Shown here: piece by piece, positions 838 through 53,420 of the stretch
Position numbering within the stretch: position 1 is the first letter of the stretch
Layout: every line of letters begins with the position of its first letter
Source of the DNA: Nannocystaceae bacterium ST9
GTDB lineage: Bacteria; Myxococcota_A; Polyangia; Nannocystales; Nannocystaceae
Length of the DNA: 64,000 nucleotides
Assembly: GCA_048320885.1 (NCBI GenBank)
Contig: JBLWFJ010000001.1
Coordinates: 1,477,642-1,541,641, forward strand
Direction of reading: 5' to 3'
Notes under the pieces: model-generated
Seen by the model: only the letters and a program-made list of their open reading frames with translations
What the model was told of the DNA's origin: nothing
Databases searched by the model: none
Position numbers and translations under genes: made by a program

Positions 838-1302
838 ATGCGCCTGCAGCCTTGCCCCTCGTGTGGTCGCCATGTCCGGGTCGCCGACGGTGACTGCCCC
901 TTTTGTGGCGCGGGCCTGACCACGTCCGCGCCCGGCTGGCTCTCGATCGCCCTGTTCGGGCTCGCGTTGGTCGGCTGCGATGCCAAGCCCGAGCCCACGA
1001 AGAAGGAAGACACCAAGACCAAGGCCGACGCGCCGCAGCCCGAGCCCGCGCAGCCCGAGCCGGCCAAGCCTGAGCCCGCCCAGCCCGAGCCGCCGCCGGA
1101 GCCTTCGACCTCGACGACCACGGGCGCACCCGCCGAGGGCACGACCAGCACCACGGGCGCCGACGACGGGGCCACCACCGCGCAAGAGCCGGTGGTCGAT
1201 GACCCGCCGATGAAGCCCAAGTACGGCGCGCCGCGGCCCGACCCGCGCCCGGCCAAGAAGTACGGCGCGCCGCCCAAGCCCGACTCCGACTCGCTCGACT
1301 GA
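838..1302 (+). CDS. zinc-ribbon (CPSC...CPFC) protein with membrane anchor and Pro-rich PEPAQPEP and KYGAPxPDP repeats
   Basis: N-terminal CxxC-x14-CxxC ribbon, then a hydrophobic segment (LSIALFGLALVGC), then low-complexity Pro/Thr-rich repeats. Stop TGA overlaps the ATG of the downstream radical SAM gene (tgATGg). Confidence 0.55.
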   Translation: MRLQPCPSCGRHVRVADGDCPFCGAGLTTSAPGWLSIALFGLALVGCDAKPEPTKKEDTKTKADAPQPEPAQPEPAKPEPAQPEPPPEPSTSTTTGAPAEGTTSTTGADDGATTAQEPVVDDPPMKPKYGAPRPDPRPAKKYGAPPKPDSDSLD

Positions 1303-2576
1303 TGGCCGGCTCGCTCCCGATCGCCTCGTCGACGCCCGCGCGCCTCCGCCTGCCGCTCGCGCCCGACCTGCGGCCCCGCGATCGCGTGCGACCGCAGTAC
1401 GCGGTCTGGGAGATCACGCTGCGCTGCGACCTGGCCTGCAAGCACTGCGGCAGTCGAGCCGGGCGGGCGCGGCCCGACGAGCTGAGCACCGACGAGGCGC
1501 TCGATCTGGTCGCGCAGATGGCCGAGCTCGGCGTCGAAGAGACGACGATCATCGGCGGCGAGGCCTACCTGCGCGACGACTGGCCGACGATCGCCGCCGC
1601 GCTGACGGCCGCCGGCATCCGCTGCTCGATGACCACCGGCGGGCGAGCGCTGACGGCCGAGCGAGTCGCGGCCGCCAAGCAGGCCGGGGTCGAGACGGTC
1701 TCGGTCTCGATCGACGGGCTCGCCGACACCCACGACCACCTGCGCGCGCTCGCGGGCAGCCACGCCGCGGCCCTGCGCGCGCTCGAGCACCTGCAGGCCG
1801 CCGAGCTGCCGCGCTCGGTCAACACCCAGATGTGCGGGGTCAACCTCCGCGAGATCGAGCCGCTGCTCGAGACGCTCGCGCGCTTCGAGATCCACAGCTG
1901 GCAGGTCCAGATCACCGTGGCGATGGGCCGCGCCGCCGATCACCCCGAGCTGCTCTTGCAGCCCTGGCAGATGCTCGAGCTGATGCCGCTGGTCGCCCGC
2001 GTGCACCGGCGCTGCGAGCAGCTCGGCATTCGCCTGTGGCCGGCCAGCAACATCGGCTACTTCGGCCCCTACGAGGCCCTGCTTCGCCACGATCACCGCG
2101 ACGGCCACCAGACCGGCTGCGAGGCGGGCACGCGCACGCTCGGCATCGAGGCCAACGGCGACATCAAGGGCTGCCCCTCGCTGCCGAGCCGCGACTACGT
2201 CGGCGGCAACGTCCGCGAGCATCGCCTGCGCGAGATCTGGGAGCGGGCCGACGTGCTGCGCTTCAATCGCGAGCCGCGTGTCCACGAGCTCTGGGGTCAC
2301 TGCGGGACCTGCTACTACGCCGACACCTGCAAGTCGGGCTGCACCTGGACCGGCCACGTGCTCTTCGGTCGGCGCGGCAACAACCCCTACTGTCACCACC
2401 GCGCGCTCGAGCTGCTGCGCGCCGGTCGACGCGAGCGGATCGAGCTGGCCACGCCCGCGCCCGGGCTGCCCTTCGATCACGGCGAGTATCGCTTGGTCGA
2501 GGAAGACTGGCCGAGCGCGCTGCTCGAGCGGGCTCGCGCGGTCGCGAGCTCGGGCGAAGGTTGGATCGACGAGTGA
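1302..2576 (+). CDS. radical SAM/SPASM-domain protein (peptide-modifying maturase-like)
   Basis: CDLACKHC motif (CxxxCxxC). C-terminal Cys-rich SPASM-like region (GCEAG...CPSL...HCGTCYYADTCKSGC). Tightly coupled to upstream and downstream genes. Confidence 0.85.
   Translation: MAGSLPIASSTPARLRLPLAPDLRPRDRVRPQYAVWEITLRCDLACKHCGSRAGRARPDELSTDEALDLVAQMAELGVEETTIIGGEAYLRDDWPTIAAALTAAGIRCSMTTGGRALTAERVAAAKQAGVETVSVSIDGLADTHDHLRALAGSHAAALRALEHLQAAELPRSVNTQMCGVNLREIEPLLETLARFEIHSWQVQITVAMGRAADHPELLLQPWQMLELMPLVARVHRRCEQLGIRLWPASNIGYFGPYEALLRHDHRDGHQTGCEAGTRTLGIEANGDIKGCPSLPSRDYVGGNVREHRLREIWERADVLRFNREPRVHELWGHCGTCYYADTCKSGCTWTGHVLFGRRGNNPYCHHRALELLRAGRRERIELATPAPGLPFDHGEYRLVEEDWPSALLERARAVASSGEGWIDE
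2441..2498. repeat. 58-bp direct repeat, copy 1 (3' end of radical SAM CDS); partner at 3966..4023
   Basis: gagctggccacgcccgcgccc[g/a]ggctgcccttcgatcacggcgagtatcgcttggtcg is present twice with one mismatch. Confidence 0.8.
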
Positions 2577-2579
2577 GTC

Positions 2580-3827
2580 ATGGCCCTGCCGATCGAGCCC
2601 GACGAGTGCGAGTGGCTGATCGATCGGACGGCCGAGCTCGTCGCCGCGGTCGGCTGGCGCGGCTACGTGTCGGCGCCCCTGGTGCTGCCCGACGCGCAGA
2701 GCTTCCCCGAGCCCTGGACGGCCGACGCTCGCGCCCTGCGTCGGCTGGCCCGGCGTCTGCTCGCGTACGCCGGGCTCGGCCAGCTCGGCGTCGAGCTCGA
2801 GCTGTTCGAGGGTGAGCGCGAGCTCGAACTCGACGCCCAGGGTCGCGACCGAGTCGTCGGTCATCAAGGTGCGGCTGCGTGGTTCGCCGGCATCGTCGAT
2901 GGCGTGTGCCAGTTCGGCTGCGAGGTCGATCAACTCCGCGATCCGATCGGCGTGGTCGGGGCGATGGCCCACGAGGTCGCCCACGCGTTTCGCCGACACC
3001 ACGCGATCGAGGTCGAGGACACCGATCTGGAGGAGCGGCTGACCGACCTGACCTCCGTGTATCTCGGCTTCGGCGTGCTCACGACCAACGCCGCGCTCCG
3101 CCACCGCTCGTACGGAAACGACGACGGCCTGATGCTGGGTCACCGCTGGACTCGCAACCAGCTCGGCTACCTGCCCGCGGCCGCGATGGCGTACGCACTG
3201 GCGCTCTGGCAGCTCGCGCGTGGCGACGACGAGCACGAGGCCAAGGCGATCCGCCGCGCGCTCGAGATCAACCAAGCGGCGTGGTTCAAGACCTCGCTCG
3301 CGTCGCTGCGCAAGCGAAAAGCCTCGCTCGCGCTGCTTCGCGAGCTGCCCGCGCGCGAAACCTGGCCGAAGCGACCCGAGCTCGGCGAGCTCGCGCTCCC
3401 CGACGCGGAGGACGACGACGCGGCCGAGCCGAACGACGACGCCGAGCCGAACGCCGACGACGAGCCAGGGATCGTGTTTCGAATCCGCGGTCGCCGAGCG
3501 TGGGGCCAGGGGAACGTCGGATTGGTCGCCGCCGGCGGCGGGATCCTGGTCGCGATGATGGGCGGATCCTCGACATGGTTCGTCGCCGCGTTCGCGCTCG
3601 TCGGTGGCGCGCTCGCCTATGGCTTCGAGCCGATCGGCTACTGCTCGGACCCCGACTGCGATCGCAACATCGGCCCGAGCGACGTGGTGTGTCCGGGCTG
3701 CCGCCGCCGGATCGCCGGCGAGATCAGCCACCGCAAGCATCGGCTCGCCGCCGAGGAGGCCGTACTCGAAGGACGCCCACTGCCGGGCGCGAACCCGATG
3801 ATCAACGAGCCCCCAGGCGACGAGTGA
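2580..3827 (+). CDS. HExxH (HEVAH) putative zinc-metallopeptidase-like membrane protein with C-terminal CxxC...CxxC zinc ribbon
   Basis: AHEVAHAF motif. Two predicted TM helices near the C-terminus (GLVAAGGGILVAMMGG / FVAAFALVGGALAYGF), followed by CSDPDC...CPGCRRR. Starts 4 nt after the radical SAM stop. Confidence 0.55.
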   Translation: MALPIEPDECEWLIDRTAELVAAVGWRGYVSAPLVLPDAQSFPEPWTADARALRRLARRLLAYAGLGQLGVELELFEGERELELDAQGRDRVVGHQGAAAWFAGIVDGVCQFGCEVDQLRDPIGVVGAMAHEVAHAFRRHHAIEVEDTDLEERLTDLTSVYLGFGVLTTNAALRHRSYGNDDGLMLGHRWTRNQLGYLPAAAMAYALALWQLARGDDEHEAKAIRRALEINQAAWFKTSLASLRKRKASLALLRELPARETWPKRPELGELALPDAEDDDAAEPNDDAEPNADDEPGIVFRIRGRRAWGQGNVGLVAAGGGILVAMMGGSSTWFVAAFALVGGALAYGFEPIGYCSDPDCDRNIGPSDVVCPGCRRRIAGEISHRKHRLAAEEAVLEGRPLPGANPMINEPPGDE

Positions 3828-3837
3828 TCGGATCTCG

Positions 3838-3962
3838 TCAAACTTGCGAGACCCTTGGGAAGCGCTTGCGAAGACGAGGCCCCGCGAGCCTGGATGGCCC
3901 CCGAGCGAAGAATGAATGAGCGAGCGAACGCGAAGCGAACAGACGCGAAGCGCTTGCGAGGA
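3838..3962 (-). repeat. GC-rich interspersed repeat (REP/MITE-like family), inverted orientation
   Basis: Its reverse complement matches the 'cctcctcgcaagcgcttcgcg..ttcgcttcgcgttcgctcgctcattc' core seen at 6330-6400 and 53270-53330. Confidence 0.7.
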
Positions 3963-3965
3963 GGG

Positions 3966-4023
3966 GAGCTGGCCACGCCCGCGCCCAGGCTGCCCTTCGA
4001 TCACGGCGAGTATCGCTTGGTCG
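3966..4023. repeat. 58-bp direct repeat, copy 2 (encodes ELATPAPRLPFDHGEYRLV, a duplicate of the radical SAM C-terminus)
   Basis: Near-identical to 2441..2498. Together the copies flank the HExxH gene plus a REP-like element. Confidence 0.8.
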
Positions 4024-4096
4024 GTGCGACGACGGGTCGCACGACGAACTGACGCAGGGGACACGACGCTCGGGCTCGCGTGTTAGTAGGGCCGCG

Positions 4097-5038
4097 ATGT
4101 CGCTCGTACGCTCGAAGGTCCTCTCGCTCACGATGCTCGCCCCGCTCCTGTCGGGCTGCCCCGCCGAGGAGCCGCCGATGGAGCCGTTCAGCCTGCGCTT
4201 TGCCGCCAGCGCCGACGGACAGGAGGTCGGCTGCGGCAGCGAGATCACCGGGCTCGGGCCGATGGGGCAGCATGTCGTGCGGCCCGCGGATCTGCGCTTC
4301 TACGTCAGCAACCTGCAGTTCTTCGACGCCGCGGGCGAGCCGATCGAGCTCGAGCTCGACCAAGACGAGTTTCAGTACCGCAGCGAGGCCGGCGAGGTCG
4401 CGCTGGTCGATCTGACCGGCACCGTCGATGGCGCCTGCTCGGCCTCGGCGATCGCCTTCGCCGAGGGCACCGCTCGCACCCACACCGCGATCACCGGCAA
4501 GACCCACGTCGATCACGTGGCGCGGATCAGCTTCGAGGTCGCCGTCCCGCAGCGGCTCATGCAGGAGACGATCGCCGCGAGCACGGCCGAGGCCGCCCCC
4601 TCGCCGCTCGCCGAGCTGTACTGGTCGTGGGCGACCGGCTACCGCCACTTCGTGTTCAACTTCGAGGTCGACGCCGGCGGAGAGCTCGGCGGCGGCTACC
4701 TGCACATCGGCAGCCGCGACTGCGGAGTCGAGGGCTCGCTCGCGCTCGAGGACCGCGACGAGTGCGGGTTCATCAACAACCCGGCGGTCGAGCTCGACGG
4801 CTTCGACCTGCGCGCGAACACGGTCATGCTCGACATCCCCGCCCTGCTCGCCTCGCTCGACTTCATCTCGCCGATCTACGACCCCGAGACCTTCGAGCCG
4901 ATCGGCGAGGGTCCCGGGGTCGAGTGCCACTCGTCCCCGATGCAGCCCGACTGCGAGACGATCTTCACCAACGTCGGCCTCGACATGGCGTCCGGCAGCG
5001 CCAGCGCGACCGCCAACGCCGTGTTCTTCGGAGGCTGA
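4097..5038 (+). CDS. MbnP-like / 'metallo-mystery pair' four-Cys motif periplasmic protein
   Basis: Signal peptide with lipobox (LLSGC) and conserved Cys pairs. Immediately upstream of, and almost abutting, a di-heme CCP-like gene (stop TGA 5036-5038, next start GTG 5040). Confidence 0.55.
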   Translation: MSLVRSKVLSLTMLAPLLSGCPAEEPPMEPFSLRFAASADGQEVGCGSEITGLGPMGQHVVRPADLRFYVSNLQFFDAAGEPIELELDQDEFQYRSEAGEVALVDLTGTVDGACSASAIAFAEGTARTHTAITGKTHVDHVARISFEVAVPQRLMQETIAASTAEAAPSPLAELYWSWATGYRHFVFNFEVDAGGELGGGYLHIGSRDCGVEGSLALEDRDECGFINNPAVELDGFDLRANTVMLDIPALLASLDFISPIYDPETFEPIGEGPGVECHSSPMQPDCETIFTNVGLDMASGSASATANAVFFGG

Positions 5039-5039
5039 C

Positions 5040-6200
5040 GTGGATCGGCTCGCGTCGCTCATCGCCCTGCTCTCCACGCTCGTGGCCTGCGAGTCGCCCG
5101 AACCGGACGACCCGAGCGAGGTCGACGACGCGGCCCTCCGCGAGCTGCTCGGCGTCCCCGACCACTTCGTGACGCCGGCGATCCCGGCCGGCAACCCGCC
5201 GACGGCCGAGAAGATCGAGCTCGGCCGCCGGCTCTTCCACGACCGCCGGCTCTCGGGCAACCAGACCCAGTCGTGCGCCGACTGTCACCTGCAGGAGCTG
5301 GCGTTCAGCGACGGCCTGACGACCCCGACCGGATCGACCGGCACGCTGCTCGAGCGCAACAGCCAAGGCCTCGCCAACGTCGCGTACCTGCCCTCGCTGA
5401 CCTGGGCGAGCGACGGGCTGCTCGAGCTCGAGCAGCAGATCCACGTGCCGCTGACCGCCGACGCGCCAATCGAGCTCGGCGTGACCGACGGCATCCGCGA
5501 CGAGGTGCTCGCGCGCTTCGAGGACGACCCGGAGTACGCGGCGATGTTCGCCGCCGCGTTCCCGGACCTCGCGGGCGAGATCACGCTCGATCACGTCGTG
5601 TTCGCGCTGGCCAGCTTCTGTCGCACCTTGATCAGCGGCGCGAGCCCCTACGATCGCTTCTTGGCCGGCGACGAAGCGGCGCTGACCGAAGAGCAGCGGC
5701 TCGGCATGAGCCTGTTCAACGGCGAGCGCTTCGAGTGCTTCCACTGCCATGGCGGCATCAACTTCACCGCCGCCTACCGCGACGCGCGGCACGATCCTGC
5801 GGACCCGCGCCTGGTGTTCTTCAACAACGGCCTCTACGACGTCGACGGCGAAGGCAGCTACCCGGCCCACGATCAGGGCCTCTACGAGCTGACCTTCGAC
5901 CCCGACCACCGCGGCCTCTTTCGCCCGCCGAGCCTGCGCAACGTCGCGCTCACCGCCCCCTACATGCACGACGGCAGCATCGCGACCCTGCGCGAGGTCG
6001 TCGAGCACTACGCCGCAGGCGGCCGACTCATCACCGAAGGCCCCAACGCCGGCGACGGTCGAGTCAGCCCGCTCAAGTCGGGCCTGGTGCGCAGCTTCGA
6101 AGCGAGCGACGAAGAGATCGACGCCGTCGTCGCCTTCCTCGAAGCGCTCACCGACGAGTCGTTCGTGACCAACCCCGCGCTCGCCGACCCCTTCGAGTGA
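5040..6200 (+). CDS. di-heme cytochrome c peroxidase-family enzyme (MbnH-like, MXAN_0977-type)
   Basis: Two CxxCH motifs (CADCH, CFHCHGG) with spacing typical of the CCP/MauG fold. N-terminal signal/lipobox. Confidence 0.8.
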   Translation: MDRLASLIALLSTLVACESPEPDDPSEVDDAALRELLGVPDHFVTPAIPAGNPPTAEKIELGRRLFHDRRLSGNQTQSCADCHLQELAFSDGLTTPTGSTGTLLERNSQGLANVAYLPSLTWASDGLLELEQQIHVPLTADAPIELGVTDGIRDEVLARFEDDPEYAAMFAAAFPDLAGEITLDHVVFALASFCRTLISGASPYDRFLAGDEAALTEEQRLGMSLFNGERFECFHCHGGINFTAAYRDARHDPADPRLVFFNNGLYDVDGEGSYPAHDQGLYELTFDPDHRGLFRPPSLRNVALTAPYMHDGSIATLREVVEHYAAGGRLITEGPNAGDGRVSPLKSGLVRSFEASDEEIDAVVAFLEALTDESFVTNPALADPFE

Positions 6201-6202
6201 GG

Positions 6203-6580
6203 GGGGTCTGGTTTGATGGAGGGCGTTCCGCCGCCCTCCCCCGTGCCGAGCAAGCTCGTCACGGGTCCCCCTCCTCTGGTTTTTCTGGAGGCCCTTCCGC
6301 GGGCCTCCCCCGTGCCGGCGGAGCCGTCACGGGTCCCCCTCCTCGCAAGCGCTTCGCGCCTGTTCGCTTCGCGTTCGCTCGCTCATTCCTTTGCTCGGAG
6401 GTGAGCCAGGCATCGCATTCGCTCGCTCATTGCTTTGCTCGGAGGTGAGCCAGGCATCGAGCCTGGTCGCTTCGCGCTCGCTCATTCCTTGCTCGGAGGT
6501 GAGCCAGGCTTCGGGCTTGGTCGCTTCGCGTTCGCTCGCTCGGCGCGATCGCGTTCGCTCGCTCAGTGGAAGATCTCGTG
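6203..6580. repeat. composite GC-rich repeat block: two tandem hairpin units (ggaggSc-ttcc-gScgccctcc ...gtcacgggtccccctcctc) plus a ~40-nt unit x3 (cgctcgctcattcctttgctcggaggtgagccaggcatc)
   Basis: Direct inspection of the sequence. Shares a core with the repeats at 3838-3962, 33640-33990 and 53218-53420. Confidence 0.8.
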
Positions 6581-7678
6581 GCCGAGGCGCTCGAGTTCGG
6601 CGAGGGTGTCGGGGGGATCGACGTGGCGTGGGGCGGTCCAGATTCGCAGGCCTGGGCGGCTGGTCGCGATCGCGTCGATCGAGCGGCGGGTGCGGTGGCC
6701 GAGCTCGTGGATGCCGGCGTAGGTGGTGCACAGGCGATCGACGACGGCCCGGGCGGCCTCGCTCTCGCCGAGCTGGGCGAACACGGCTCGCTCGATTCGC
6801 TCGCGCGCCGGTGGGTCGGGCAGCTCGGCGTCGGTCCGGTTGAGCAGCACGGCGTCGATCCGCAGGCCGTAGGCGGCGAGCTGGTCGAGGAACTCGCGGG
6901 CCTCGCGAGCGGAGAAGGGTGAGGCGGTGGTCACCAGCAGCACGCCGGTCGCGGGGCTGCGCAGCAGTCGTTCGAAGTCGCCGCCGCGACGGTGGAACTC
7001 GCCGAGCACCTCGGCGAACTCGCGCAGGAAGGCGCCGAGGTCCCCGATGAAGTCGCCGCCGCCGATCTGCCGGAGCGTCTTGCCGAGCACCGAGCCGCCG
7101 AGCCCGAGGATCTTGGCGCCGACCCGGCCGGTCCCGGCCAGCAGGCGCGCGCCGGGGTTGTCGATCAGCTCGCGGACCTGCTTGGGCGCGTCGAGGAAGT
7201 CGATCGCGTTGGCGGTCGGCGGGGTGTCGAGGACGATCAGGTCGTGCTCGCCGGCGTCGTGGAGCATCTGAACGCGGGCCATCGCGGCGAACTCGAGCGC
7301 ACCCGAGAGCCGCTGGGCGGTCGCGCGATAGATCCGACTGGCGAGGATCTTGTCGGCGCTGGCCGGGTTGCTCGCGCAGGTGCGGACGATCGTGTCGAAC
7401 ACCTTGGCGCCGTCGAGCACGAGCGCGTCGAGGTGGCCGCCCTCGCGCCGGACCGGGACCAGCTCGCCGGTTCGTCCGCGCGCGTCGAGTCCGAGCGCCT
7501 GGGCGAGTCGGCGCGAGGGATCGATGGTCACGACCGCGACCTTGCGACCCTGGCTCGCGGCGTAGAGCCCGAGCGCGGCGGCGCTGGTGGTCTTGCCGAC
7601 GCCACCGGGGCCCACGCACAAGACCAGCTCGCGGCCGGGGAAGGGCAGGGAGGATCCTGTGGACGGCCTAAGGGGCAT
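6563..7678 (-). CDS. ArsA/GET3-family anion-transporting ATPase (SIMIBI P-loop)
   Basis: Deviant Walker A GPGGVGKTT. Start placed at the internal Met (MPLRP). The longer ORF reaching 7714 would overlap the divergent biotinyl-protein gene. Confidence 0.7.
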   Translation of the reverse strand: MPLRPSTGSSLPFPGRELVLCVGPGGVGKTTSAAALGLYAASQGRKVAVVTIDPSRRLAQALGLDARGRTGELVPVRREGGHLDALVLDGAKVFDTIVRTCASNPASADKILASRIYRATAQRLSGALEFAAMARVQMLHDAGEHDLIVLDTPPTANAIDFLDAPKQVRELIDNPGARLLAGTGRVGAKILGLGGSVLGKTLRQIGGGDFIGDLGAFLREFAEVLGEFHRRGGDFERLLRSPATGVLLVTTASPFSAREAREFLDQLAAYGLRIDAVLLNRTDAELPDPPARERIERAVFAQLGESEAARAVVDRLCTTYAGIHELGHRTRRSIDAIATSRPGLRIWTAPRHVDPPDTLAELERLGHEIFH

Positions 7679-7697
7679 GCAATAACCTCCCGGCGCG

Positions 7698-8252
7698 ATG
7701 GCGGCCGAATCCAACCCCAGCGGCTATCGGATCCGCGTCGGCGAGCGCGAACATCGAGTCGAGATCCTCGCTGCGAGCGAGGGCCAGCCGCTGCGCGTGC
7801 GGGTCGACGGCCACGAGTTCGAGGTCGCGAACGCGGGCGTGCACGCGCTGCGCGTGGCCCCGCAGTCCGGCGAGGATCGTCGGCAGCTCGAGGTCACGCT
7901 CGCCAGCGATGGCGGCCGCGCGAGCGAGGCCTGGCTGTCCGGCACGCGGGCCAAGCTCGCGGTCCAGACCGAGCGCGAGGCTCGGCTCGCGGCCGCGCTC
8001 GGCAAGTCCTCGGCCGGTCACGGCAGCGGCGAGCTGCTCGCCCCGATGCCCGGCCGCGTGGTCAAGGTCGGCATCGCGCTCGGCGATCGCGTCGAGCGAG
8101 GCGCACCGATCATGATCGTCGAGGCCATGAAGATGGAGAACGAGCTGCAGGCCCCGATCAGCGGGATCGTGCGCAGCATCGCCGTGCAGGCCGGCGCCGC
8201 GGTCGATGCCAACCAGGTGCTCTGCGTGATCGAGCCCGAGCCGGCCGCTTGA
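7698..8252 (+). CDS. biotin/lipoyl attachment domain protein (BCCP-like)
   Basis: C-terminal biotinyl-domain consensus: IMIVEAMKMENELQAP...VLCVIEP. Confidence 0.65.
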   Translation: MAAESNPSGYRIRVGEREHRVEILAASEGQPLRVRVDGHEFEVANAGVHALRVAPQSGEDRRQLEVTLASDGGRASEAWLSGTRAKLAVQTEREARLAAALGKSSAGHGSGELLAPMPGRVVKVGIALGDRVERGAPIMIVEAMKMENELQAPISGIVRSIAVQAGAAVDANQVLCVIEPEPAA

Positions 8253-8259
8253 GCGCCGC

Positions 8260-9228
8260 TCAACCATCGGCCACGCTCCCGGGCTCGCGCCCACCCTCGA
8301 TCGCGGCGAGCAGCTCGGCCACGCGATCGAGCCCGTCGACACCCCAGGGCCACCAGGGCACGGTCAGCAGATCGGACCCGTCGCTCGGGTGGCGGCCGAG
8401 CCAGTCGGCGACGACCTGGGCTTGATCGTCGCCGCGCTGCCCGACCCGCGCGACCGCGGCGAACATGCGCGCGAGCGATCCGTCCTCGTCGAGCTCGCTC
8501 GCGGGCGGCTCGAGCGAGACGAACTCGCGCGGCCACAGCTTGTTGACCACGCGCGCGCCCACGCTCAGGCCGACCTCGACGCGCAGCGCCTCGGCCAGCT
8601 CGGCGAGCTCGGTCAGCGGCCAGATCTCGGGCAGCCCGACCAGCACCGCCTGACTGATCGCCGCGTCGCCGAGCGCCGCGCTGATCGCCGCCGCCTCGCG
8701 AGCGAGCGGACCTTCGGCCACGGTCTCGACGATCGCCCGCGGCACGCCGAGCACCAGCCGCAGGTGACCCGAGGCCGGACCGTCGAACACGACGACGTCG
8801 TGGCTGCGCGCACGCACGGCCTCGTGCCAGACCTTGCCGAGCACCGCGAAGTCGTCGAACCCGGGGATCGCCCGCAGCAGCCGCCGCACGACCTTGTTTC
8901 CAAACACCGCGTGCGAGAGCCGGTGGCTGTGGGTGACCAGCGCGCCGTACTCCTCGGCGCAGGTGGCCGGGACCAGCCGCTGGATCGAGAGACCGGGGGC
9001 GACCTCGACCGGCACGTCGGGCAAGCGCTCGCCGCCGAGCATCCACGCCAATCGATCGTCGTGGCCCGTGGTCGCGATCAGCACGCGTCGGCCTCGAGCC
9101 GCCAGCGCCATCCCGAGCAGCGCCGCCACGGTGGTTCGTCCGACCCCGCCCTTGCCGCTGACGATCAGCAAGCGACGAGCGCCGAGCTGCTCGAAGAGCT
9201 CGGCAGGCGGGCGTGGCTGCTCCGGCAC
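8260..9228 (-). CDS. ArsA-family ATPase (second copy)
   Basis: Walker A GKGGVGRTT. Same family as 6563..7678. Confidence 0.7.
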   Translation of the reverse strand: MPEQPRPPAELFEQLGARRLLIVSGKGGVGRTTVAALLGMALAARGRRVLIATTGHDDRLAWMLGGERLPDVPVEVAPGLSIQRLVPATCAEEYGALVTHSHRLSHAVFGNKVVRRLLRAIPGFDDFAVLGKVWHEAVRARSHDVVVFDGPASGHLRLVLGVPRAIVETVAEGPLAREAAAISAALGDAAISQAVLVGLPEIWPLTELAELAEALRVEVGLSVGARVVNKLWPREFVSLEPPASELDEDGSLARMFAAVARVGQRGDDQAQVVADWLGRHPSDGSDLLTVPWWPWGVDGLDRVAELLAAIEGGREPGSVADG

Positions 9229-9436
9229 CGGGCGGAAGGTGGCACAGCCGGAGTGAGCGAACCAGGGCGAAGCGCGAGGCGAGGGCAGCCGACGACTTGC
9301 CGAGCTCCGCTCGCCGACTCACCCTGCCGGTCGGGCCTTGACCGACGAGAGGGGCTTGCACGATCGTGCTCGTCCGCTCGCGCTCCCGTCGAGGAGCTCG
9401 CGTCGAGCGACGCGCCCATGGCGCCCAGGAGACACC

Positions 9437-10222
9437 GTGCCGGTCGAAATCAAGAGCAAGGAAGAAATCACCAAGATGCGGGCCACCTGCACGCTGGCCG
9501 CGTCGGTGCTCGACTTCATTCGGCCGCACGTGCAGCCGGGCGTGACCACCAACGCGCTCGACAAGCTCTGCCACCAATACATCCTCGACCACGGGGCCTA
9601 CCCCGCGCCGCTCAACTACAAGGGCTTCCCCAAGTCGATCTGCACCTCGGTCAACGAGGTGATCTGTCACGGCATCCCGAGCGACGACAAGGTCCTGCGC
9701 GACGGCGACATCATCAACATCGACATCACGACGATCCTCGACGGCTACTTCGGCGACACCTCGGAGATGTTCGCGGTCGGCGAGATCAGCGACGAGGCCC
9801 AGCACCTGATCGACGTGACCCGGCAGTCGATGTGGCTGGGCATCCTCGAGGTCGCGCCCAACAAGCGGATCGGCGACATCGGGGCCGCGATCGTCGAGTT
9901 CGCCCACGCCAAGCACAGCTACGCGGTCGTCGAGGCGTTCTGCGGGCACGGGATCGGCCGCGAGTTCCACATGGCCCCGCAGATCCCCCACGTCGGCAAG
10001 CGCGGCAACGGCATGCGCGTGCGACCGGGCATGACCTTCACGATCGAGCCGATGATCAACCAGGGCACCCCGCACTGCACGATCCTCGACGACAACTGGA
10101 CCGCGATCACCCGCGACGGCAAGCTCAGCGCCCAGGTCGAGCACACGATCCTCGTGACCGACGAGGGGTACGAGGTGCTGACCATGCGCGAGAGCGCTTG
10201 GCGTCCTTCCGACGCTCGCTGA
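9437..10222 (+). CDS. map: methionine aminopeptidase type I
   Basis: Collinear with E. coli MAP: KSKEEITKMR, the metal-ligand region CHGIPS..DGDIINIDIT..., EHTILVT. Start taken as the in-frame GTG that matches the family's N-terminus. Confidence 0.85.
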   Translation: MPVEIKSKEEITKMRATCTLAASVLDFIRPHVQPGVTTNALDKLCHQYILDHGAYPAPLNYKGFPKSICTSVNEVICHGIPSDDKVLRDGDIINIDITTILDGYFGDTSEMFAVGEISDEAQHLIDVTRQSMWLGILEVAPNKRIGDIGAAIVEFAHAKHSYAVVEAFCGHGIGREFHMAPQIPHVGKRGNGMRVRPGMTFTIEPMINQGTPHCTILDDNWTAITRDGKLSAQVEHTILVTDEGYEVLTMRESAWRPSDAR

Positions 10223-10240
10223 CGCCTTGCGTCAGAAGGC

Positions 10241-12361
10241 TCAGTTCCAGGTCGGCAAGAACGACTGCTCGCGGCCGTACTCGAGCATCTGCTCGGTGAA
10301 GTCGGCCGGGTAGTCGATCCGCACGTCGACGATCTCGTCGCCCTCCATGACCGGGACCAGCCGCGGCTGAAGGAACCCGGCGTAGGGCGCGATGCCCAGT
10401 CCGGCGTAGCGGCGCAGCACCTGCTCGTGCAGATCGCGATCGACCTTCACGCCGTAGGTCTCGATCAGCGCCTTGCCGGCCGCGGTGTCGCCCTGCGACT
10501 TGATCCGCTGGATCTCGCGCAGGAGCTGGCCGAAGAGCGCGCGCAGCTTGGCGTAGTCGCGGATCACGAAGAAGGTCTCGCCCTCGCGCTCGAGCTTCTC
10601 GATCACGTTGTCGGGCTTGCCTTGCTCGTAGGCCCAGAGCGCGACCAGCTGGCGGTTGCGCATGTGCGACTCTTCGAGCTGCTCGCCGAGTTCGAGCCGC
10701 GAGAGCTGGATCAGCAGGCCGTTGCGGACGTAGCTGTCGTACTCGGCCTTGCCGACCTCGAGCGAGGGCATCAGGCCGAGCTCGACCAGCTTGGGATCCA
10801 TCACGTAGTAGAGCGCGACCAGATCGGCGCGGGCCTCCTCGAGTGCGCTGGCGTGGGCGCCGAGCGTCTGTTTGGGCGTGCCGACGCCGGGCTCGAGCTG
10901 GCCCGAGGCGTGGCCGATGACCTCGTGCATGTCGACGTGCAGCTTGGCGGCGAGCGGCCCGAACTGCTCGGCCCGCTCGCGCTCCTCCGGCGAGGCGCAG
11001 AACTCCTCGAGCACGCCGCCGCCGGCCCGCCCGAAGTCGTAGGCCTCGACGATGTTGCCGAGGTTGACCGACTTGCTGCCGTGCTTGGTGCGGATCCAGT
11101 TGGCGTTGGGCAGGTTGATGCCGATCGGCGTGCTCGGGGCCGCGTCGCCGGCCTCGACGACCACGGTCACGACCTTGGCCGAGATCCCGACCACGTCGGG
11201 CTTCTTGTGGGCGTCGATCAGCGGCGCGTTGTCTTCGAACCACTGGGCCTGCCCGGCGATCGTCGCGATCCGCTTGGTCGCCTCGGCGTCCTGGAACGAG
11301 ACCACGCCCTCCCAGGTCCCGCGGTAGCCGATCGCGTCGTCGTAGACCTCGATGAACCCGTTGATCGTGTCGAAGCGCGACTGCGTGTCGGCGACCCAGG
11401 CGACGTTGTACTCGTCGAACTTGCGCAGGTCGCCGGTCTCGTAATAGGCGATCAGCAGCTCGAGCGCGCGCTTCTGTTCGGGGGTCTCGGCGATCGCGGC
11501 CGCCTTCGCCAGCCAGCCGATGATCTCGCGGATCGCCGGCCCGTACATGCCCTGCGCCGACCAGACCTGCTCGACCAGCTTGGCCTTCTTGCCCTTGCCC
11601 TCGCGGACGAGCTTCGAGTTCAGGCCCAGCGAGATCGGCTCGGGGTCGTTGGGGTCGAGCTGCTTGGCGTAGAACTTCTGGACCTCGGCGGCCGTGATCC
11701 CGGGCGCGTAGAAATTCGACGCCGAGTCGGCGACCGGGTCGGCCCCCTCGTCGCGGTTGGTCCGCTTGGCCGCGATCTTCGGGTCGAAGATCATCGGGCC
11801 GATCGTCGCGAGCAGGGCGTCGACGCTCTCGCCCTCGCGCAGCGGCAGCAGGGCCGGATCGAGGCTGCGCACGGCCTGCTCGAACCACGCCTGGGCGAAG
11901 CCGGGCTCGAGCTTCTTGCTCGAGTAGTGGTGGTGGATCCCGTTCGAGAACCACACCCGCTTGGCGTACTCGTGCAGGGCCATGAACTCGGGGCCGGCGC
12001 GCTCGCCCTGCCAGTGCTCGACCAGGGCGTCGAGCGTGCGACGGATCGCCAGGTTGCCGGCGTACTTCTGATCGTAAGTGATGTCGCGGCCGGCCAGCGC
12101 GGCCCGGTAGAGGTAGTAGGCCAGCCGCTTTTGCTCGATCGGCAGCTCGGCGAAGCCGGGCACGCGATAGCGGAGGACCTCGACGTCGGCGAAGCGATCG
12201 ACCGACCAGTCGAACTCGGGCTGCAGATCGACCGGCGGATCCTCGTCGGGCGTCTCGACGCGGGTGTCGGGCGGCTCGGTGTTCGGCTTGGTCTCGCAGG
12301 CGAGCGAGGTCGGGAGCGCGAGCGTGAGCAGGAGGGCGAACGAGAGACGCGAGGTCGACAC
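10241..12361 (-). CDS. M49-family (dipeptidyl-peptidase III-like) zinc peptidase, lipoprotein
   Basis: HEVIGH ... EEARADL (HExxGH + EExxAE) zinc-binding pair. Lipobox LPTSLAC. Confidence 0.7.
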   Translation of the reverse strand: MSTSRLSFALLLTLALPTSLACETKPNTEPPDTRVETPDEDPPVDLQPEFDWSVDRFADVEVLRYRVPGFAELPIEQKRLAYYLYRAALAGRDITYDQKYAGNLAIRRTLDALVEHWQGERAGPEFMALHEYAKRVWFSNGIHHHYSSKKLEPGFAQAWFEQAVRSLDPALLPLREGESVDALLATIGPMIFDPKIAAKRTNRDEGADPVADSASNFYAPGITAAEVQKFYAKQLDPNDPEPISLGLNSKLVREGKGKKAKLVEQVWSAQGMYGPAIREIIGWLAKAAAIAETPEQKRALELLIAYYETGDLRKFDEYNVAWVADTQSRFDTINGFIEVYDDAIGYRGTWEGVVSFQDAEATKRIATIAGQAQWFEDNAPLIDAHKKPDVVGISAKVVTVVVEAGDAAPSTPIGINLPNANWIRTKHGSKSVNLGNIVEAYDFGRAGGGVLEEFCASPEERERAEQFGPLAAKLHVDMHEVIGHASGQLEPGVGTPKQTLGAHASALEEARADLVALYYVMDPKLVELGLMPSLEVGKAEYDSYVRNGLLIQLSRLELGEQLEESHMRNRQLVALWAYEQGKPDNVIEKLEREGETFFVIRDYAKLRALFGQLLREIQRIKSQGDTAAGKALIETYGVKVDRDLHEQVLRRYAGLGIAPYAGFLQPRLVPVMEGDEIVDVRIDYPADFTEQMLEYGREQSFLPTWN

Positions 12362-12434
12362 GCGCGAGGCGTGCCACCCGACCCCGCGCGAGTCAAGCCA
12401 CTCGATTCAGGCCACCCGCTTCAGGCCACCCGCT

Positions 12435-13556
12435 TCAGGCCCCGAGAGTCGAGCCCTGCGCGTCGGGCATGCGCAGGTCCTCGAACTGCGCGTAGACGAA
12501 TCCGAACTCGCGGCGAATCGCCTCGTCGGAGAGCCCGAACGCGGCCGCCGAGTAGCGGTGCTGCGAGGCGTAGTCGCCCTGCTTGCCGGCCTGCTCGCGC
12601 AGCAGCAGCTCGGTGGCCGCGTCGAGCTCGATGTCGAGGAAGCGAGCGACGCGGGTCATCGTGCCCTCGAAGTCGCTGAACAGGCTCGGATAGGTGAGGA
12701 TCAGCGTGTCGGACTCGGCCCGGCGAGCCTCGACGCAGAGCCGGCGATAGTAGACCGCCGAAGTCCGGACCAGGTTGTCGAAGTAGCGCTTGCGCAGCGA
12801 CTCGCTCTGCGCGTCGATGTCGTTGATCCGGCGCTGGATCCCGTGCTCGAGCGAGCACATCGACACGACCGACTCGACCGGATCGCGGACGATCAGCAGG
12901 AACTTCGCGCCGGGGAACTGCGCGCGGACCTGGTCCATGTTGAAGAGCAGGCAGAACGACTTGCTGAACATCCGCAGGCCGCTGCGGTGGACCGCCCGGC
13001 GATAGACCGCGGCCAGGTAGCGGACGAAGCGGGGCTTCTCGACGGTCTCGGCCAGCGCCCGCTCGAACGCCGCGTCGTCGGGGTACTCGCGCCAGGCGTG
13101 GAAGTAGATCCACGAGAGCAGCCCGTCGAAGTAGCGCATCGAGAGCGCGATGTCGTCGGTCTCGGCCGCGAAGAACCCGGTCTCGTGGATGTTGGGATCG
13201 TAGACGCGATCGAAGGACACCCGCTGCATGAAGCGCAGGAAGGGCCGCAGCAGCAGCCGAGCCGTCAACGCCGGAAACACCATCTCCCACAGCAGCAGCG
13301 AGCGAAACGGGAAGGTCTCGGTCAGCCAGCGGTGCAGGAAGGTCGTGCCGCTGCGCAGGTGGCCGATCAAAAACACCGGGCGATCGAGCGGCGTCCGGAC
13401 CCCGCGAGGAAAGAACAGGTGATCGAGCGCGAGCGTGAGCGCGGTGAACGAGGTCAACGCGATCCGAAACCCGAGCAGGCCGAGCTGGCGCCAGCGAAAC
13501 CCGAACACCTCGATCAGCAGCAGGACGACGCGGAAGCTGTTGATCAGCCCGGTCAT
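12435..13556 (-). CDS. membrane-anchored sulfotransferase (PAPS-dependent family)
   Basis: 5'-PSB-like LIGHLRSGTTFL and 3'-PB-like RDPVESVVS motifs. N-terminal hydrophobic helices. Start ATG overlaps the stop of the upstream type III PKS (ATGA). Confidence 0.7.
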   Translation of the reverse strand: MTGLINSFRVVLLLIEVFGFRWRQLGLLGFRIALTSFTALTLALDHLFFPRGVRTPLDRPVFLIGHLRSGTTFLHRWLTETFPFRSLLLWEMVFPALTARLLLRPFLRFMQRVSFDRVYDPNIHETGFFAAETDDIALSMRYFDGLLSWIYFHAWREYPDDAAFERALAETVEKPRFVRYLAAVYRRAVHRSGLRMFSKSFCLLFNMDQVRAQFPGAKFLLIVRDPVESVVSMCSLEHGIQRRINDIDAQSESLRKRYFDNLVRTSAVYYRRLCVEARRAESDTLILTYPSLFSDFEGTMTRVARFLDIELDAATELLLREQAGKQGDYASQHRYSAAAFGLSDEAIRREFGFVYAQFEDLRMPDAQGSTLGA

Positions 13557-14629
13557 TGCGCTTCCCACTCGTAGAGCGCGGCGCCCATGTAGTAGCCGGC
13601 CCCGAACGAGACGATCATGCCCTTGCGCCCGTGCTTGCCGGACGGGTCCTCGGCGAAGAAGCTGTCGAGCACGAACAGGCAGCTCGGCGCGCTGAAGTTG
13701 CCGTGGCGCCGGAAGAGTCGGGTCGCGCGATCGAGCTGGGCGCTCGACAGCCCGAGCAGCTCGGGCTTGCGGAACTCGGCGAGGATCGGCAGCCCGCCTT
13801 GGTGCATCGCCCACTCGTCGATCTCGCCGACCTCGAGCCCATGCCGGGCGAGCATCGGTCGGATCAGCCGCTCGCTGACCATGCGCGGGACCTCGTGCCT
13901 GAGCTCGTCGGTGAACACCAGCCGGCCCGCGTCCATCCACACCGACGCGCCCGGCACGAAGTCGCAGGCGACGTCGAGCAGGCGCATCAGCGGGCGTCGA
14001 AAGGCCCGCCGCAGCGAGCGAGGCGCGAGCAGCAGGCCGGCCGCGCCGTCCGAGAAGAGCAGGCTGGTCCGCAGGTGCTCGCGAAAGTCGACCTGCGCGG
14101 GATCGCGGACCGGATCGACGATCCACGAGCACTGATCGAACACGCAGAGCGCGGCCAGTCGCTCGCGCTCTCGACAGTAGCGAAACCCGCTCTCGAGCGA
14201 GAAGAGCCCGCCGGCGCAGCCGTAGAACGCCCGCTCTTCGGGCGGCACGTCGAGCGCCAGCGGGACCGCGCTGGCGACCTGGGCCGCGAGGCTCGGCAGC
14301 AGGTCGGCGCTCGACGAGACGTTGTAGGCCACGCCGAGGAAGCCGATGTCGCGCGCGACCGGGCTCGAGGTCGACAGCTCCTCGACCATCCCGCGGCACC
14401 ACTCGAGCGGTCGATACTCCGGGCGCGCCAGGGTTCGATTCGGGAACGCGTCGGGGTCGAGCACCGACGAGCGCGACTCGATGCCGACGACCTGGGCCGC
14501 GCGTCGGGCCAGTCGATTGATCCGGCCCTGCGCGAGCGAGGGCGGATAGAGCACGTCCATGCACTCCTCGGGGCTGAACAGCCGCGGGAGCCGGGTGGTG
14601 ATCCCGGCGATGTAGACTGCGTCCGACAT
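13553..14629 (-). CDS. type III polyketide synthase (chalcone/stilbene synthase family)
   Basis: Catalytic triad contexts match CHS: GCAGG (Cys), WAMHQGGLPIL (His), GNFSAPSCLFVLD (Asn). Confidence 0.8.
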   Translation of the reverse strand: MSDAVYIAGITTRLPRLFSPEECMDVLYPPSLAQGRINRLARRAAQVVGIESRSSVLDPDAFPNRTLARPEYRPLEWCRGMVEELSTSSPVARDIGFLGVAYNVSSSADLLPSLAAQVASAVPLALDVPPEERAFYGCAGGLFSLESGFRYCRERERLAALCVFDQCSWIVDPVRDPAQVDFREHLRTSLLFSDGAAGLLLAPRSLRRAFRRPLMRLLDVACDFVPGASVWMDAGRLVFTDELRHEVPRMVSERLIRPMLARHGLEVGEIDEWAMHQGGLPILAEFRKPELLGLSSAQLDRATRLFRRHGNFSAPSCLFVLDSFFAEDPSGKHGRKGMIVSFGAGYYMGAALYEWEAQ

Positions 14630-14779
14630 GCGCCTGCTCGGGTCGGCGATTGGAGCATGAACCCGAGAGCGGGTGCCAGCACGCGTGCGCGCGCGGACAG
14701 GCCAGTCCTCACGCCCTGCGCGATTCGATTTGTCGACGGAAGCGCGACGAGCCCAATCGCGCTTCCATCGAGTTCGCGG

Positions 14780-53214: not shown

Positions 53215-53217
53215 CTT

Positions 53218-53420
53218 TAGGAGGCCCTTCCGCGGGCCTCCCCCGTCCCGGCGAAGCCGTGACGGGACCCCCTCCTCGCAAGCGCTTTGCGCCTGTTCGC
53301 TTCGCCTTCGCTCGCTCATGTCGCTCGGAGGCCGTCCAGACATCCCGGGACGGCGCGTCGCGGGTACCTCCTCGCAAGCGCTGCGCGCCCGTCGGCTCGT
53401 GTCAGGGTGCGCGGGCGCGC
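53218..53420. repeat. GC-rich interspersed repeat (same family as 6203-6580)
   Basis: The motif ggaggcccttccgcgggcctcccccgtcccg...gtgacgggaccccctcctcgcaagcgctttgcgcctgttcgcttcgccttcgctcgctca, followed by a partial second copy. Confidence 0.75.

Follow-up and report, generated by a model that had tools for sequence, protein, structure and literature searches.

The window analysed here, a 64-kb (64,000-nt) stretch of the Nannocystaceae bacterium ST9 genome, comes from a single 6,975,145-bp contig without Ns; no paper on strain ST9 was found in the literature. The locus of interest carries a radical SAM/SPASM gene (rSAM), a gene for an HExxH protein, a broken REP-like element and an mbnP-mbnH pair, together with a repeat of part of the rSAM 3' end. 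Its features, in window coordinates, are as follows.

1302..2576, + strand: intact rSAM (424 aa) with its native C-terminus; Pfam Radical_SAM and SPASM; 60 orthologues
2442..2499, + strand: copy 1 of the repeat, the source sequence, within rSAM (residues 381-399) and kept in place in orthologues
2500..2576, + strand: native rSAM tail, EEDWPSALLERARAVASSGEGWIDE and stop; absent after copy 2 in ST9 and decayed in the MAG relic
2580..3827, + strand: HExxH protein gene (415 aa; no Pfam or NCBIfam family), an old, vertically inherited neighbour of rSAM
3838..3965, + strand: truncated REP-like element, (a) part only, from comparison with seven other copies
3966..4023, + strand: copy 2, a non-coding rSAM 3'-end fragment between the REP breakpoint and the mbnP leader
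4022..6200, + strand: mbnPH module (leader, mbnP and mbnH), 2.18 kb, with homology to loci L080, L083-L090 and L100
4024-4042, + strand: leader inverted repeat GTGCGAC-N5-GTCGCAC, within the mbnPH module
4097-5038, + strand: mbnP (TIGR04052, 190 bits; cut-off 140)
5040-6200, + strand: mbnH (TIGR04039, 475 bits; cut-off 363)
6201..6566, - strand: inverted REP-like array, including a hairpin-only unit at about 6213-6271
6568..10218, strand unspecified: ArsA-like / biotin-lipoyl / ArsA-like / M24 block, inverted relative to L001 and L002

A repeat search and BLASTN across the window identified two direct copies of a 58-nt sequence, at 2442-2499 and 3966-4023, identical at 57/58 positions and differing solely at G2463/A3987. 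The E-value of the pair within the window (9e-24) rules out a chance match. The near-perfect 58-bp duplication described in the initial annotation is therefore real, although copy 1 begins at 2442 rather than 2441. Copy 1 lies in frame within the rSAM coding sequence, where residues 381-399 read ELATPAPGLPFDHGEYRLV. Copy 2 is intergenic and lacks both the gene's first 380 codons and its tail; a 65-aa ORF spanning it (3855-4052) is not conserved and has no family match, and no paralogue relic was detectable around it. Copy 2 matches the corresponding rSAM sequence of other lineages at 45-54 of 58 positions, and it shares with copy 1 the base G2496, the single ST9-unique site within its span. 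It thus has the hallmark of a gene remnant, homology to an intact parent gene of the same lineage with lineage-specific bases included. Apparent parallels elsewhere were set aside: a perfect 55-nt rSAM 3'-end repeat in L011 consists of two contig ends around a 100-N scaffold gap, and in about 20 Polyangiales loci a second rSAM 3' match, 2.5-4 kb downstream, belongs to a full-length tandem paralogue rather than to a fragment.

The C-terminus of the rSAM protein is easily misread. The initial annotation proposed that an insertion had changed it, but the gene's length and tail are common to 60 orthologues: the 25 residues after copy 1 (EEDWPS…GEGWI) are conserved in 60/60 of the closest, down to ~60% identity, and not one of these 60 ends in …GEYRLVGATTGRTTN. 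Consistent with this, NCBIfam profiles align to the protein through residue 402-409. The best of these profiles, TIGR04103 (483.5 bits, cut-off 725) and TIGR03913 (417 bits, cut-off 592), each match below cut-off, and the product is a related radical SAM/SPASM protein outside these two peptide-maturase equivalogs. The tail is native, and the intact rSAM gene was never altered.

Nor did the HExxH gene arrive with the repeat, as had been suggested. Its adjacency to rSAM, with a 3-4-nt spacer, recurs in loci L002, L095/96 and L097, its divergence scales with that of rSAM, and ST9 is the outgroup for both genes. The lineages of these loci show 25-28% fourfold-site divergence, against 1/58 differences between the repeat copies. 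The gene is missing after rSAM in L001, L098, L003 and more distant relatives; since L001 is nested within the HExxH-bearing clade, its absence there is a loss. The HExxH gene is an ancestral, vertically inherited neighbour of rSAM rather than a recent insert.

Both edges of copy 2 are rearrangement junctions, so the repeat does qualify as a recombination footprint in the general sense first proposed. On the left lies a REP-like element, initially placed at 3838-3962 and here delimited to 3838-3965, which belongs to a genuine interspersed family: the window holds four copies or arrays, with inverted copies at 6336-6541 and 53216-53392, and further copies are present in L001, L003 and L094. The element is cut at 3965|3966, while 6 of the 7 other copies examined run on into two GC-rich hairpins. 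The canonical element folds with z = -3.6 (0/200 shuffles as stable), and the truncated copy lacks this fold signal; the hairpin-only unit at about 6213-6271 could be its missing half. An inverted repeat that seemed to run from the element into copy 2 (3911-3985/6317-6391) was rejected as a chance extension, the real element ending at 3966. These observations mark the region 3' of rSAM as a REP-rich rearrangement hot spot.

On the right, copy 2 abuts the mbnPH module. The mbnP and mbnH genes are adjacent, 1 nt apart, and both score above the NCBIfam cut-offs, as expected of an MbnP/MbnH pair, that is, a copper-binding protein and a MauG-like di-haem enzyme whose function has been reviewed (PMC11951088). 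Homology of the module begins at window position 4022 in comparison with nine independent contigs of the 94%-MbnP organism, and at 4025 in comparison with more distant modules, whose mbnP leaders lack the copy-2 fragment. What follows copy 2 is accordingly a conserved mbnP leader and not, as the initial annotation would have it, the original end of rSAM. The segment shared with L080, L083-L090 and L100 is confined to 4022-6200, with 95.1% identity, whereas the rSAM locus of the same MAG (GCA_035904925.1) is only 81% identical to that of ST9. Fourfold-site divergence differs likewise, at 35/377 (9%) for mbnPH versus 53/185 (29%) for the rSAM locus (Fisher p = 1e-8). In the MAG, the module sits in a locus unrelated to that of ST9: 5/6 flanking proteins (MetH among them) fall in 90% clusters without an ST9 member, while the clusters of MbnP and MbnH contain one. 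The mbnPH module was laterally transferred between Nannocystaceae lineages, and the mbnP-mbnH pair moves as a tightly bounded unit.

In this MAG, from another Nannocystaceae lineage, and across the nine contigs compared above, a decayed relic of an rSAM 3' end precedes the mbnP leader and joins it at the same nucleotide as copy 2 does in ST9 (…CG|GTGCGAC). The relic covers rSAM position 2489 to the stop codon, with a local alignment score of 54 versus 17±3 for shuffles (maximum 34), and overlaps copy 2 at 2489-2499. It matches ST9 rSAM at 58/65 positions and six other lineages at 45-51/65, and carries the ST9 base at 5/5 ST9-unique sites; it is of ST9-lineage origin. The contig that bears it was assigned to the MAG through metagenomic binning and co-occurrence in one sample. 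A MAFFT alignment that left the relic unassignable to any lineage (11 vs 8 sites) was discarded, as it had misaligned the deletion of ~16 nt; the identity and diagnostic sites given here come from a gap-aware alignment. Given a 1-nt insertion, this deletion and 7/65 substitutions, the fragment has been free of selection, and, as in other gene remnants, there is no complete frame, no start codon and no purifying selection. Whether the 38 nt on the relic's left side preserve the REP|copy-2 junction was considered, and this idea was rejected because they do not align significantly with copy 2 or with that junction (251/1000 shuffles did as well). The initial annotation had reasoned that the same arrangement with diverged copies in relatives would imply an ancient, fixed structure; a diverged fragment does exist in another genome, but the correspondence is only partial. 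Scar and decayed counterpart together form a lineage barcode, in which five ST9-specific bases point to an ST9-like source of the transferred mbnPH.

The repeat and both of its junctions, the native tail and the boundaries of the module are observed; on this basis copy 2 is probably a dead fragment of the ST9-lineage rSAM 3' end, one that was joined to the 5' side of mbnPH and moved along with it, after which ST9 lost the tail portion. A partial rSAM duplicate of 135 nt or more, extending to the stop codon from nt 2442 or further upstream, would have come to sit directly 5' of the mbnP leader, its attachment perhaps coinciding with the placement of mbnPH downstream of rSAM-HExxH by a REP-associated illegitimate rearrangement. 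The fragment would then have hitch-hiked with the 2.18-kb module, which the lineage of GCA_035904925.1 acquired laterally, retaining the fragment's 3' part (2489 to stop) in decayed form. A later ~95-nt deletion in ST9, between CG microhomologies, could then have removed the tail part together with a short spacer, fusing 58 nt to the leader. As no genome turned up in which the full fragment (2442 to stop) lies between REP element and leader, we infer rather than observe that copy 2 shares a single origin with the relic and that ST9 later lost the ~95 nt. The repeat itself is an ordinary rearrangement scar, not the footprint of an HExxH insertion. One mismatch in 58 was observed in copy 2 against about 3-3.6 expected at the age of the transfer (P(≤1) = 0.13-0.20), a count compatible with that age that nevertheless leans toward a younger age or gene conversion.

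Alternatively, copy 2 may be filler copied from 1.5 kb upstream during break repair or template switching at the REP|leader junction, in ST9 only, and unrelated by descent to the MAG relic. The near-identity of the copies (57/58), the exact fit of copy 2 into the space between two breakpoints, where microhomology amounts to 1-2 nt (G left, CG right), and the left part of the MAG spacer, which has no significant homology to copy 2, would all suit such a patch, as would the complexity of the rearrangement: besides the broken REP element, the locus has a 3.6-kb inversion and 4.5 kb of extra DNA. Yet two separate events would then have had to copy overlapping rSAM ends of the ST9 lineage to the same nucleotide of the same mbnP leader, and no templated or duplicated patch was found at the other breakpoints (6530-6600, 10190-10300 and 14600-14800). 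We therefore regard an independent patch as unlikely.

A further possibility is that the fragment is ancestral, as in the hitch-hiking account, but that gene conversion by the intact copy 1.5 kb away, rather than limited age, explains its near-identity. The single mismatch where about 3-3.6 were expected is in keeping with conversion, and in tandem rSAM paralogues of Polyangiales (L032) 208 nt at the 3' ends are 98.6% identical, a conversion-like pattern. However, the mismatch count does not statistically call for conversion, the homology tract is very short, and with one variable site no mosaic pattern is visible; this addition to the hitch-hiking account is decidedly doubtful. Very unlikely, in our judgement, is an active role for the fragment, in which mbnPH would be a discrete 2.18-kb cassette with fixed ends (palindromic leader to mbnH stop), mobile without a recombinase of its own, and the attached rSAM fragment or 58-bp repeat would serve, for example, in homology-guided docking beside rSAM/SPASM loci or in reversible excision of the rSAM tail and HExxH gene. 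Among 79 rSAM loci, none has an intact rSAM directly followed by mbnPH.

The model of the initial annotation, by which the rSAM 3' end received an insertion (att-like or Campbell-type) that brought in the HExxH gene, the REP element and a replacement gene end, with 58 nt duplicated and the C-terminus changed, now has almost nothing to recommend it. A direct repeat of a gene 3' end does flank 1.47 kb, and rSAM loci without HExxH do exist, but the conserved native tail follows copy 1 and nothing tail-like follows copy 2, the rSAM-HExxH junction and divergence pattern reflect old vertical co-inheritance with loss in L001, and the repeats enclose nothing but the HExxH gene and a REP element, Pfam and NCBIfam scans finding no integrase or transposase in that gene or in neighbouring ORFs.

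We find it harder still to credit a functional repeat, acting either as a phase switch or programmed deletion by which the rSAM tail is lost along with the HExxH gene and REP element, or as a regulatory RNA or DNA site for mbnP. Copy 2 does lie directly 5' of the conserved mbnP leader, and 58 bp is a sufficient length for RecA-dependent recombination. Nevertheless, its MAG homologue has decayed with indels and is hence not conserved, the fragment is missing from more distant mbnP leaders, copy 2 has no Rfam match, promoter or terminator consensus or unusual fold, no recombinase was found nearby, and deletion would cost rSAM its conserved 25-residue tail. No function is inferred for copy 2. At most, as the initial annotation suggested, the repeat might mediate a deletion, here of 1524 bp, so that spontaneous 1.5-kb deletions removing the conserved rSAM tail and the HExxH gene are possible. 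Finally, a chimeric join in the ST9 assembly can for practical purposes be dismissed: the REP|copy-2 junction is corroborated by no second assembly, the metagenome collection contains no exact copy of a 25-mer across the copy-2|leader junction and the look-alike in L011 was a scaffold-gap artefact, but the 6.98-Mb source contig makes an artefact unlikely, one base differs between the copies, the context of copy 1 and the leader right of copy 2 are corroborated by other assemblies, and an independent relic of the same gene end occupies the same place in other assemblies.

Among known systems, attL/attR duplications of gene 3' ends, classically in tRNA and tmRNA genes but in protein genes too, look similar in that the 3' portion of a gene is repeated directly, with one copy in the intact gene and the other beyond intervening DNA. 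All three marks of such a duplication are nonetheless lacking, namely a recombinase, a displaced gene end after the distal repeat and recently acquired intervening DNA; here there is no integrase, the native tail follows the proximal copy and unrelated DNA the distal one, and the HExxH gene in between is no cargo but an ancestral neighbour. Transposon target-site duplications are typically 2-14 bp and flank an element with terminal inverted repeats and a transposase, whereas this repeat is 58 nt, with no transposase, and the DNA it flanks has no terminal inverted repeats.

The broken element resembles REP/BIME sequences, both being intergenic, multi-copy and hairpin-forming and both acting as rearrangement hot spots. 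It is conserved across genomes (96% core identity), with one copy broken at the junction, and differs from REP/BIME in being a composite of an A/G-rich (a) part and two GC hairpins, specific to this Nannocystaceae group and without an Rfam family. Templated (filler) insertions made by end-joining or MMBIR/FoSTeS-type repair likewise put a short copy of a nearby template right on a breakpoint that shows 1-2 nt of microhomology, in loci with several simultaneous-looking rearrangements; in contrast, the fragment here would originally have been at least 135 nt long and older than the lateral transfer.

Copy 2 resembles gene remnants (pseudogene scars) at rearrangement or island junctions, which are short, promoter-less, untranslated copies of part of a resident gene. 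Like them, copy 2 is bounded by breakpoints, has a sister copy that decays neutrally and appears to have been carried along with moving adjacent DNA. Unlike ordinary remnants, the scar is split across genomes, with 2442-2499 in ST9 and 2489 to the stop codon in the MAG, and its lineage-specific bases identify the donor lineage of a lateral transfer.

A direct repeat of 58 nt (2442-2499 versus 3966-4023) is present in the window, with copies identical at 57 of 58 positions and differing only at G2463/A3987 (BLASTN inside the window, E = 9e-24). This confirms the near-perfect duplication reported in the initial annotation, with the start of copy 1 moved one base later, to 2442. Copy 1 is in frame in a radical SAM/SPASM gene (rSAM), where it encodes residues 381-399, and copy 2 is intergenic. 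The features concerned are as follows.

1302-2576: rSAM, 424 aa, Radical_SAM and SPASM domains
2580-3827: HExxH protein, no family match
3838-3965: REP-like copy
4097-5038: MbnP, above family cut-off
5040-6200: MbnH, above family cut-off
6201-6566: REP-like copies or array
6563-7714, minus strand: ArsA/BagB-like protein
53216-53392: REP-like copy or array

The best NCBIfam matches of rSAM, TIGR04103 and TIGR03913, are both under cut-off. Its start codon is overlapped by the stop codon of a gene (838-1302) for a 154-aa protein with no family match. At its N-terminus this protein has a zinc-ribbon-like motif (CxxC…CxxC), and it also contains a hydrophobic stretch, a region rich in Pro and Glu, and a KYGAP motif that is repeated. 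It is a conserved upstream partner of rSAM across Nannocystaceae (30-66% identity) and may be a substrate or partner protein. According to a review (PMC11951088), the MauG-like di-haem enzyme MbnH acts on the copper-binding protein MbnP, turning a tryptophan into kynurenine.

The initial annotation proposed that the HExxH gene and the REP-like repeat were inserted into, or replaced, the rSAM 3' end and so changed its C-terminus; both parts of this model, insertion and altered C-terminus, are contradicted. In a search of 5.8 billion proteins, rSAM orthologues were ~424 aa long, the closest being 86-88% identical (Enhygromyxa 81%, Plesiocystis 72%). When the 60 best matches are aligned, all conserve the 25 residues past the repeat-encoded peptide (EEDWPSALLERARAVASSGEGWI…), and none of them (0/60) is an orthologue ending in …GEYRLVGATTGRTTN, the form suggested with that model. 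Copy 1 thus occupies its native context, and copy 2 is secondary. At sites where L001, a comparison locus from another genome, differs, copy 2 also has the variants of the window's own lineage.

Nor is the HExxH gene a recent arrival. Of 79 rSAM loci, taken from genomes and metagenomes, only those of ST9, L002, L095/96 and L097 have it directly after rSAM, with a spacer of 3-4 nt in every carrier. HExxH identity scales with rSAM identity (0.74-0.75 at rSAM 0.86-0.88 versus 0.80-0.84 at rSAM 0.88-0.91), ST9 is the outgroup for both genes, and carrier lineages differ at 25-28% of fourfold sites, far above the 1/58 between repeat copies. Together, these patterns show that the adjacency is old and vertically inherited. 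The rSAM tree places ST9 as sister to ((L097, L002), (L095, L001)); L001 lacks HExxH yet is nested among carriers, so its absence there is a loss. In L001 (11276-11450), two hairpin-only REP-like units come after the rSAM stop codon, with a convergent M24 gene next, while in L098 the convergent M24 gene starts just 25 nt after rSAM. The HExxH protein itself (HEVAH) has a C-terminal hydrophobic segment as well as a CxxC…CxxC motif. It matches no Pfam or NCBIfam family but has >240 homologues, and the source of one distant match labels that protein an M48 metalloprotease. Enhygromyxa and Plesiocystis do not have the homologue next to the rSAM gene.

Similar-looking repeats elsewhere were rejected. 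In L011 (11196-11405), a perfect "repeat" of 55 nt from the rSAM 3' end flanks a run of 100 Ns and is a scaffolding artefact at a gap in a public MAG, which inflates apparent gene length. Downstream rSAM 3' matches in Polyangiales are not fragments but complete tandem rSAM/SPASM paralogues ~3 kb apart (L032 9908-11272 and 13107-14408; also L029, L035, L036, L041 and others). The L032 paralogue 3' ends are 98.6% identical across 208 nt, which suggests gene conversion between them.

The left edge of copy 2 interrupts a repeat element. The 3838-3965 segment belongs to an interspersed family, with no Rfam family assigned, whose other copies in the window lie at 6336-6541 (inverted; tandem arrays at 6391-6541) and 53216-53392 by BLASTN; relatives carry it at L001 5624-5795 and 20490-20540, L003 3090-3200 and L094 6303-6353. 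The element is a composite of an A/G-rich part a (…GAGCGAGCGAACGCGAAGCGAAC…GCGCTTGCGAGGAGGGG) and two GC hairpins, and its 51-nt core is 96% identical across genomes 25-29% apart at fourfold sites. Of the seven other copies, three lie in the window and four in L001, L003 and L094; in six of the seven, …GCGCTTGCGAGGAGGGG is immediately followed by the hairpins. At 3965/3966 these are absent and the rSAM 58-mer takes their place. The fold of the canonical element is much more stable than chance predicts (z = -3.6), unlike that of the truncated copy with copy 2 attached. Judged from these comparisons, the left edge is a breakpoint. Inverted GAGGAGGGG(G) motifs at 3957-3966 and 6262-6271 bound the segment holding copy 2 and mbnPH (3966-~6261). 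This segment may have flipped once, because a canonical element is rebuilt when 3884-3966 is joined to the reverse-complemented hairpin unit at ~6213-6267, just past mbnH; a flip is not proven, since hairpin-only units also occur elsewhere.

The right edge of copy 2 is likewise a breakpoint. Scanning metagenomes with MbnP turned up L080 (94% aa identity), whose DNA is 95% identical to the window over exactly 4022-6200; L083-L090 and L100 show the same limits, and more distant AhpC-adjacent modules (L082, L091, L099) are alignable from 4025. On the right, homology ends at the mbnH stop codon in each of three distinct contexts. The 25-mer spanning copy 2 and the leader was not found in the metagenome collection, and copy 2 has no Rfam family, promoter or terminator consensus, or unusual fold. 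At the left end of the module, within the leader (4022-4096) and ~55-70 nt 5' of mbnP, lies a perfect inverted repeat, GTGCGAC-N5-GTCGCAC (4024-4042), followed by …CTG(A/C)CGCAGG(G/T)G. Because TGCGAC…GTCGC is kept in mbnP leaders of three genomic contexts (L082, L091, L092, L099 compared), it is a candidate operator or promoter element.

In the organism carrying L080, L083-L090 and L100 (22 contigs, several samples), mbnPH is flanked by a HemN-like gene on one side and an unrelated gene of 398 aa on the other, and the 192-nt spacer 5' of mbnP holds a decayed rSAM/SPASM 3' end. This relic meets the same leader at the same nucleotide as copy 2 (…CG, then GTGCGAC). It scores 54 in local alignment to ST9 rSAM (shuffles 17±3, maximum 34) and, in a gap-aware alignment, reaches from 2489 to the stop codon, interrupted by an insertion of 1 nt and a deletion of ~16 nt. 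Its identity is 58/65 to ST9 versus 45-51/65 to L097, L002, L095, L001, L098 and L094, and it has the ST9 base at all five sites where ST9 differs from these six relatives (2496, 2504, 2518, 2547, 2548). Copy 2, which overlaps the relic at 2489-2499, shares G2496, the only such site within its span; the 38 nt left of the relic have no significant match to copy 2 or to its junction with the REP-like element. Relic-bearing L100 (JAMHUH010000948) and an intact rSAM locus, L003 (JAMHUH010000704), belong to one MAG (GCA_035904925.1), and L094 and L084 come from a common sample.

Between ST9 and this organism, fourfold sites differ at 53/185 in rSAM but just 35/377 in mbnPH (Fisher p = 1e-8), and DNA identity is 81% at the rSAM locus versus 95% in the module. 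Outside 4022-6200 no DNA is shared. Of six module-flanking proteins, five (MetH among them) fall in 90% clusters that lack an ST9 member, whereas the clusters of MbnP and MbnH contain one. The module thus moved laterally with an attached ST9-type rSAM fragment, the source being an ST9-like genome.

Most likely, a partial duplicate of the ST9-lineage rSAM 3' end, reaching from at least 2442 to the stop codon, would have landed between a broken REP-like element and the mbnP leader. Together with mbnPH, the fragment would have reached the other lineage, which still has a decayed remnant of its 3' part; in ST9, the tail part and spacer (~95 nt) would later have been deleted between CG microhomologies, leaving 58 nt. 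The fragment may first have arisen by tandem duplication then replacement, or by a template-switch event. Relic divergence from ST9 (7/65 plus indels) fits the module's neutral divergence of ~9%. Copy 2 has one mismatch in 58 where ~3-3.6 are expected, as gene conversion by copy 1 might produce; since this shortfall is not significant (P = 0.13-0.20), conversion is possible but not required. Repeat-mediated deletion is also a possibility.

The wider locus is rearranged too. Relative to L001 and L002, 6568-10218 (ArsA-like, biotin-lipoyl, ArsA-like and M24 genes) is inverted, and 3838-6567 and 10219-14779 are extra DNA, the latter (4.5 kb) with genes for an M49 peptidase, a sulfotransferase and a KAS-III-like protein. 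Neither a recombinase gene nor a junction repeat turned up at 6568-10218 or 10219-14779, and other breakpoints of the locus have no duplicated patch. The L094 contig stops 356 nt past rSAM, and ~270 nt of flank from the stop codon are a repeat (11274-11543 versus L003 1592-1860, 88.5% identity, 6 kb upstream in the same species), which probably caused the break.

The general label of recombination footprint given in the initial annotation stands for copy 2, with a breakpoint at each edge, though not as an insertion that altered rSAM. As an interesting side result, the scar serves as a barcode for the lineage that donated a laterally transferred mbnPH module. The repeat is real and of an ordinary kind: a scar left by a gene fragment, at a rearrangement hot spot rich in REP-like elements.
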